From Candidatus Poribacteria bacterium (GTDB lineage: Bacteria; Poribacteria; WGA-4E; PCPOR2b): DNA of 64,000 bases. The stretch spans positions 4,896,001-4,960,000 of the forward strand of contig OZ220744.1 of NCBI GenBank assembly GCA_965116925.1, read 5' to 3'. The translations under genes and the position numbers were made by a program. Below the pieces are notes generated by a model. The model was not told the DNA's origin, did no database searches, and saw only the letters and a program-made list of their open reading frames with translations. Positions within the stretch are counted from its first letter, which is position 1, and every line of letters starts with the position of its first letter. This document shows positions 2,559 to 2,804 of the stretch, in pieces.

Positions 2559-2804
2559 ATGGGACTCGATTGGAAACCACGTCATCGGGATATGCTTATT
2601 GGCGGATACTGGTGGTTGGCACGGGTTACGGATAAGGCGCGTGCCAAATTGAACGGTACTATCGGTGAGTACATCTACCCGTGACCGCAGGACAAAAAGT
2701 TCCTGGAGGAACACAAGCTAGATGCTGACGAGTTCGTTGAGATGGTCAAAAGCAATCCGTCAGACGATGATATGATCGCCGCGATGCAAAAGCTCAATCG
2801 ATAG
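2559..2804 (+). CDS. DUF5069-like small protein with in-frame TGA (codon 42), candidate selenoprotein
   Basis: RBS AAGGAGGTGA before ATG 2559. Translation MGLDWKPRHRDMLIGGYWWLARVTDKARAKLNGTIGEYIYP*PQDKKFLEEHKLDADEFVEMVKSNPSDDDMIAAMQKLNR. TGA at 2682-2684 falls at the Cys of the recalled DUF5069 GEYxYxCPxD motif. Confidence 0.75.

Follow-up and report, generated by a model that had tools for sequence, protein, structure and literature searches.

Bacterial selenoprotein genes carry a selenocysteine insertion sequence (SECIS) inside the gene, a hairpin that is read by SelB, and the prototype is fdhF of Escherichia coli. They have an in-frame UGA codon at the position of a cysteine (Cys), the hairpin follows just downstream, and selA, selB, selC and selD are present. 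The gene described here is laid out in the same way. It is located at positions 2559 to 2804 on the plus strand of a 64,000-nt stretch of a Candidatus Poribacteria genome (contig OZ220744.1, positions 4,896,001 to 4,960,000 of the forward strand), which we refer to as the window and to which the coordinates below apply. We consider it very likely that this is a genuine and conserved gene for an 81-residue selenoprotein of a short DUF5069 subfamily, and that UGA codon 42 is read as selenocysteine (Sec). An earlier note, made from the letters of this DNA, had proposed that the UGA encodes Sec, and the proposal is now supported by the Sec machinery of the genome, the conservation of the TGA, its alternation with Cys codons and the constraint on the hairpin.

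The closest described relatives in kind are the single-Sec families of unknown function that are listed in Table 1 of a 2026 review of 119 prokaryotic selenoprotein families (PMC13188914), such as DUF523, DUF1858 and the hypothetical proteins DG, DW, DF and GOS_B. The gene resembles these in its Sec/Cys pair, its homologues with TGA in other Sec-using organisms, its SECIS-like hairpin, its single Sec and the absence of biochemistry. Unlike them, DUF5069 is not in the catalogue: a string search of the full text of the review, with its Table 1, gave no occurrence of PF16798 or DUF5069, and a search of NCBIfam with the read-through protein gave no family at E ≤ 1. The family is likewise not named in the BSepDB paper and one of its supplement files, although the file is without any “DUF” string, so that names may be written differently there and the search is weak, nor is it named in the available text of the deep-Sep paper. 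No paper in the searchable literature contained the terms “DUF5069” or “PF16798.” These searches agree with the statement in the earlier note that the family was not known to have been reported as a selenoprotein. Our reading would thus add a selenoprotein family that nearly all Poribacteria and some of the Latescibacterota possess.

The gene starts with an ATG at position 2559, with a Shine-Dalgarno-like site, AAGGAGGTG, on the same strand (2543–2551), 7 nt ahead of it. Translation gives 41 codons up to the TGA (2682–2684) and then 39 codons up to the true stop codon, TAG (2802–2804). The ribosome-binding site, both codon counts and all coordinates had been given correctly at the outset, as a re-reading of the sequence showed. 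The N-terminus MGLDWKPR is retained across orthologues, the 3′ ends of which fall within a few codons of the TAG. It had also been claimed that the track of open reading frames (ORFs) misses the gene, which holds at the default limit of 60 aa but not at a limit of 30 aa, where just a truncated ORF of 44 aa (2550–2684) is listed.

Translated through the UGA, the protein matches the Pfam family DUF5069 (PF16798) with an E-value of 1.9e-16 and a score of 60.9 bits, the cut-off being 27. The match extends from residue 7 to residue 78 and therefore spans the TGA. Only profile positions 4–75 of 133 are covered, so the protein is a short form without the C-terminal half that is found in PDB entry 3omd and in the full-length paralogs of the same genome. 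The sole solved relative, 3omd_A (E 1.2e-14), has a Cys aligned with position 42. Both the motif of the family, as the earlier note gave it, and the placement of the stop at its Cys are thereby borne out. With the Cys-type short DUF5069 proteins and with 3omd the protein has the domain, the fold and the invariant motif R..DKARA ... G.Y.YP[C/U]P.D in common, and it differs from them in having Sec for Cys.

When a short gene is broken by a lone in-frame stop, one usually suspects a nonsense mutation that has left a pseudogene, or else an error of sequencing or assembly. A search of 176 Candidatus Poribacteria genomes at a threshold of E ≤ 1e-5 identified an orthologue in 168, and 160 of these have TGA at the codon-42 column, at protein identities down to 64%. 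A TGA confined to this strain, which had been named in advance as the mark of a mutation or an error, was thus not seen. Exactly one in-frame TGA was present in 150 of 150 orthologues among the matches listed, and likewise in family f3 (7/7) and in genomes G007, G008, G017, G112 and G160. Family f8 has an uninterrupted orthologue in all eight genomes, with TGC or TGT read in the five that were extracted. The eight genomes without an orthologue are those of families f5, f10 and f11 (six genomes) and two assemblies that are 81% complete (G113 and G123). At the TGA (2682–2684), no differing base is listed in independent contigs of one DNA run and three RNA libraries, and in the hairpin (2699–2712) none is listed in the RNA-library contigs. 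Furthermore, the TGA recurs in the Latescibacterota and in two Gemmatimonadota-like records, and the frame is intact, with purifying selection on both sides of the codon. The comparative data refute a pseudogene or an error, to which we assign virtually no probability.

We also compared 80 public loci, 26 of which are from Poribacteria and 54 from Latescibacterota, Chloroflexota, Gemmatimonadota, Bacillota and more. The codon at the column is TGA in 41 loci, TGC in 31 and TGT in 8, and all 39 non-TGA forms thus encode Cys. Outside the Poribacteria, 22 TGA forms were found. The alternation of TGA with Cys codons that was to be expected for a Sec residue is seen in Poribacteria family f8, in the Latescibacterota and in other phyla. 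A tree was inferred from 69 unique rows and 72 columns with the Sec/Cys column masked, leaving aside loci L025–L054, near-identical genus or order copies and paralogue loci. At least four changes of the Sec/Cys label are needed on this tree, three of which are forced by well-supported branches, many forks being left open by the 72 columns. The Sec forms cluster in the Poribacteria (18 rows), in the pair of L137 and L162, and in the Latescibacterota (nine rows, with two Cys forms nested).

Public records show the gene in two other guises. One is a 41-residue stub, annotated on 158 contigs, for which the NCBI names are “hypothetical protein” or “DUF5069 domain-containing protein.” The other is a full-length protein of 81–84 residues with W at column 42, as in 10 of the 16 homologs that were returned (P0002–P0008 and P0010–P0012, public protein calls of the European Nucleotide Archive, ENA). 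Taken at face value, the W would imply that this organism uses TGA as a sense codon, for Trp or, alternatively, Gly. However, TGA terminates 484 of the 1611 open frames of at least 400 codons in the genome, the only tRNA with the UGA-reading anticodon UCA is tRNA-SeC, and the homologs have Cys at the column, not Trp or Gly. Stop-codon usage and the tRNA set refute a sense-TGA code, the probability of which we regard as negligible; TGA is otherwise an ordinary stop, and the genetic code is the standard one. The W is most likely due to gene callers that used table 4 (TGA = Trp) on short contigs, a systematic mistranslation. If the codon is read as Sec, the public records are in error in both guises, as a stub or with Trp at the Sec position.

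The genome encodes the machinery for Sec insertion, the presence of which had been left as a matter to be checked. Matches were obtained for selD (369 bits), which itself contains one in-frame TGA, selB (373 bits) and selA (607 bits), each above its curated cut-off, and tRNA-SeC(tca) adjoins selB, so that selA, selB and selC form one cluster. Across the phylum, selA was identified in 163 of the 176 genomes, including seven of the eight in the Cys family f8.

Judged by its sequence, the genome is rich in candidate selenoproteins. One in-frame TGA each was found in selD, in 7 of 20 AhpC-TSA matches, in the single Rdx match (SelW-like) and in one of three CMD matches (AhpD-like). Examples of candidate sites are C1:4745417-4746238, 996583-996975, 4720852-4721232, 2097953-2098342, 3628452-3628664 and 4704786-4704944. 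Hairpins were scanned for in nine of the TGA-bearing matches, and six of them (selD, three of six AhpC-TSA, Rdx and CMD) had an element of similar geometry, that is, with the loop 16–26 nt past the UGA and a G early in the loop. Among the eight besides selD, the stems of these elements are 6–8 bp in five (the three AhpC-TSA, Rdx and CMD), with the same range of loop distances; of the remaining AhpC-TSA matches, two have weak hairpins and one has none. The element of selD comes close in geometry to that of the DUF5069 gene, its stem being 7 bp long, its loop AGUU and the distance from UGA to loop 17 nt. The DUF5069 element shares the layout of these elements and is among the weakest found.

The hairpin downstream of UGA42 is constrained at the RNA level and is tied to the TGA forms; in this respect it behaves like a SECIS element. 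It occupies positions 2699–2712 on the plus strand, with the stem GUUCC/GGAAC (G2699–C2703 with G2708–C2712) and the loop UGGA (2704–2707), in which a G stands at position 2. Counted from the UGA, the stem starts at 14 nt, the 12-nt core TTCCTGGAGGAA at 15 nt and the loop at 19 nt; stem, loop, loop distance and loop G are all as the earlier note had described them. The core is present in 41 of 41 TGA forms versus 1 of 39 Cys forms in the public set, and the lone Cys form that bears it (L111) is a close relative of Sec forms. Its stem and loop columns are invariant in all 47 unique aligned TGA-form segments. The codons for F48-L49-E50-E51 are TTC CTG GAG GAA in 54 of 54 unique genes, with no synonymous change; neighboring invariant residues do vary synonymously (Y40: TAT 27, TAC 26; D45: GAC 37, GAT 17).

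The pairs outside the core vary among the 47 sequences. The closing pair is GC in 44, AU in one, CG in one and GU in one, and it is unpaired in none, and the next pair outward is A-U in 13, U-A in 7, G-U in one and unpaired in 26, the genus of the window being in the unpaired group. Overall, 85.1% of the cells are paired versus 14–60% with slid partners. The stem of 5 bp in the window is extended to 7 bp in L098, L100, L102, L137 and the Latescibacterota, and the 7-bp hairpin is part of the minimum-energy fold in L098, L137 and L129 (-9.2 to -9.6). In L098 and L100, the distance between UGA and hairpin is longer by 3 nt owing to an extra codon. Recent switchers to Cys are starting to lose the hairpin, as seen from one broken pair in L120 and an altered 3′ arm in L103. 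It is unusual for SECIS elements to share an identical core between phyla, as is the case here in at least two.

A consensus scan called the hairpin terminator-like on the minus strand, as its sole match of this kind, and the structure could accordingly be viewed as an intrinsic terminator of the opposite strand (GTTCCTCCAGGAAC then TTTTTGTCCT) that is unrelated to the UGA. Yet this single site compares with 0.6 expected in shuffles, no minus-strand gene ends upstream of the hairpin, and the neighboring genes are on the plus strand. The sole overlapping minus-strand ORF (2675–3079) runs through the hairpin, which moreover tracks the TGA forms across phyla with differing neighbors. We consider a terminator to be highly improbable and infer that the hairpin is a SECIS element bound by SelB.

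In geometry, the hairpin can be compared with the model of the bacterial SECIS (bSECIS) in the legend to Fig. 2 of PMC13188914: a loop of 3–9 nt, an (upper) stem of 4–16 bp, a G in the first two loop positions, a distance of 16–37 nt from UGA to loop, and a minimum free energy of at most -7.5 kcal/mol. The window’s hairpin falls within all four geometric ranges, with a 4-nt loop (UGGA) that has a G at position 2 followed by another G, a stem of 5 bp, within the 5–7 bp seen among its relatives, and a spacing of 19 nt. Unlike the model, the stem in the window’s genus is minimal, and its energy lies above the limit.

We also considered an alternative in which the conserved UGA acts as a stop, leaky or programmed, with the 41-residue peptide as the main product or with read-through by a near-cognate tRNA (Trp or Cys), and the hairpin as a general signal for read-through or pausing. 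The weakness of the window’s hairpin would fit this explanation, as would the 41-aa product in the public annotation of 158 contigs. Selection beyond the UGA was examined in 72 TGA-form genes, of which 57 are unique and 54 were kept, three being dropped because of an extra codon ahead of the FLEE motif. The ratio of nonsynonymous to synonymous polymorphism (pN/pS) was 0.287 upstream of the UGA (37 codons) and 0.355 downstream of it (35 codons), which indicates that purifying selection acts on the two halves to a similar degree and in one frame. In-frame selection after the UGA implies that these codons are translated, and this counts against a leaky stop. Also against it are a column that is Cys in all 39 non-TGA forms and never Trp, Gly or another residue, the full Sec machinery in the genome, a hairpin with bSECIS spacing and loop G that resembles the element after the UGA of selD in the same genome, and the incipient loss of the hairpin in the Cys-switched relatives L120 and L103. 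We favor the selenoprotein and regard a leaky stop as improbable.

Several observations nevertheless weigh against Sec at this codon. By itself, the hairpin of the window, with no more than 5 bp, reaches -5.7 kcal/mol and so misses the energy limit of -7.5 in the bSECIS model as given in the figure legend. Its z-score as a single sequence is not significant (-0.13 for 86 nt; -1.87 for 20 nt, where 11 of 200 shuffles fold as well), and since this fold is no better than chance, the significance of the hairpin comes from the comparison with relatives only. In that comparison, the covariation score was 0.079 versus a shuffled mean of 0.039, with none of 500 shuffles as high, but the four inner pairs are invariant and the signal therefore comes from the outer three pairs in few lineages, and related sequences can beat shuffles without any structure. 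A 44-nt stretch downstream of the UGA does reach that limit in its minimum-energy fold (-7.8), but by a different pairing, of CAGGA with UCCUG; this pairing was rejected, as three of its pairs break in 19–21 of the 47 sequences without compensation. The search for selA gave no match in eight TGA-form genomes (G032, G064, G071, G074, G076, G111, G124 and G008), all of which are fragmented assemblies with a completeness of 73–95%.

To these points may be added the limits of the RNA data. In the RNA libraries of two studies there are contigs that span the UGA (X4 record 13, 2646–2767; X7 and X8, 2509–3000), but such libraries can hold DNA and the contigs give neither transcript ends nor levels, so they indicate presence only, and their depth cannot rank expression. 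The stretches without RNA cover (2372–2508 in X7 and X8; after 2780 in X4) carry no evidential weight. Finally, the insertion of Sec is itself a step that we infer. The minimal hairpin, with an energy that falls short of the usual cut-off, may serve as a test case for SECIS prediction.

In the mechanism that we propose, a ribosome that arrives at UGA42 would encounter SelB carrying Sec-tRNA(Sec) and bound to the hairpin at 2699–2712, as in the standard bacterial pathway. Sec would then be inserted, and translation would proceed through the 39 codons to the TAG. From its sequence features, the gene would depend on the usual bacterial pathway for Sec, its SECIS hairpin being a minimal one.

We know of no member of DUF5069 with a known function. 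A crystal structure has been available since 2010, in records entitled “uncharacterized protein” and “unknown function protein from Leptospirillum rubarum” (PDB 3omd), and the replacement of Cys by Sec now makes a working hypothesis possible. An AlphaFold model of the protein (pLDDT 88, pTM 0.78) predicts a compact four-helix domain with the 3omd fold, the helices being formed by residues 20–31, 43–51, 56–65 and 69–79. Superposition of the model on 3omd gave a Foldseek TMq of 0.82 and, in VIA-align, a Z-score of 12.2 and a root-mean-square deviation of 1.8 over 79 aligned residues. In a protein atlas, a natural Cys homolog (P0009) matched nothing but DUF5069 clusters, with scores of 0.83–0.85. 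Sec42 belongs to the invariant motif Y-x-Y-P-U-P-x-D and is placed directly before the helix 43–51, at its N-cap.

The redox-active nucleophiles of thiol oxidoreductases are usually a Cys or Sec placed at the N-terminus of a helix. The natural replacement of Cys by Sec would mark residue 42 as functional and most likely redox-active. As the translation contains no second Cys, any redox cycle would have to draw on an outside thiol or on a partner. On this basis, the role that we find most likely for Sec42, tentatively and somewhat short of an even chance, is that of a redox-active nucleophile whose cycle would involve an external thiol or else a partner protein. A function as a ligand of a metal or cofactor is an alternative that we think unlikely, and the role may also be of some other kind.

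Three findings temper this view of the function. The genome holds four further DUF5069 domains, full length and without stops, and the Cys is present in two of them and absent from the other two. Within the short subfamily, all 37 rows of alignment A3 have it, and the Cys is therefore a feature of this subfamily and not of all DUF5069 proteins, so the “conserved Cys” of the earlier note applies to the short forms but not to the family at large. The fold search beyond 3omd gave TetR-like helices in the next rows, at the level of noise (Z ≤ 3.6). Likewise, no conserved functional neighbor of the short DUF5069 gene was found in the Poribacteria, where the neighborhood consists of UPF0182 upstream and pheA downstream, with WD40 genes in the place of the latter in the window.

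A lead to a possible partner comes from other phyla. A gene of about 340 residues is located directly upstream on the same strand in 24 of the 54 non-Poribacteria loci, the eight loci that supplied queries included, and in none of the 26 Poribacteria loci; examples are L123:846-1853, L147:1476-2483 and L137:1438-2469. The stop codon of this gene and the start codon of the DUF5069 gene overlap as ATGA in L123 and L147. In an alignment of 18 members, K52, E71, D205, N210 and D231 are invariant, a pattern of Lys, Glu, D-x4-N and a later Asp that looks like the catalytic residues of a kinase. The genome of the window contains an unlinked homolog (C1:1273464-1274561; L165:2965-4062), and homologs are present in 163 of the 176 Poribacteria genomes and absent from families f5, f10 and f11, as is the short DUF5069 gene. 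The short Sec/Cys protein may conceivably be a small redox-active partner (a substrate, activator or sensor) of the kinase-like family, a speculation that we hold to be doubtful. If true, the two genes would make up a system that links a selenol/thiol switch to phosphotransfer or to nucleotidyl transfer.

Some results weaken this idea. The Pfam family APH matched one member of the kinase-like family at 2e-6 and no other member, and searches of PDB and NCBIfam with the protein gave sub-threshold Bud32/TP53RK rows only. No kinase-like match at E 1e-30 was found in seven genomes that have the DUF5069 gene, and the lineages that are without both genes are only three and related to one another. A predicted complex of the Cys-form DUF5069 protein of L123 with its kinase-like neighbor (score 0.02, mark 0.32) counts neither way. 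Some of the kinase-like orthologue matches contain one in-frame stop, which is TGA in G041, G029, G173, G165 and G039 and TAA in G147, G143, G152, G170 and G120; such stops may mark the end of the gene, a break or a further Sec codon.

The surroundings of the gene yielded a few further observations. A promoter scan found none at the locus, and an Rfam scan of positions 2300–3000 at E ≤ 10 returned just chance-level microRNA and DnaX rows. Directly past the TAG there is an imperfect palindrome, GGAAACGCAGATCTGCGTTCC (2804–2826), the 14-nt core of which, CGCAGATCTGCGTT, occurs 127 times in the genome, and the palindrome is therefore a repeat resembling repetitive extragenic palindromic (REP) elements. 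Short contigs of high depth from the DNA and RNA runs pile up on it. The palindrome may act as a transcript end, although no run of T follows it. The minus-strand ORF at 2675–3079, of 134 codons, covers the intergenic region together with the 3′ half of the selenoprotein gene. It extends across the hairpin as well as the REP-like element, and we take it to be probably spurious. Further 3′ of the selenoprotein gene are two large genes with WD40 repeats (2955–5462 and 5542–8127). In other Poribacteria families the next gene is pheA, with chorismate mutase, prephenate dehydratase and ACT domains, after which comes an aminotransferase, and for this reason the WD40 genes have the look of an insertion in the genus of the window.

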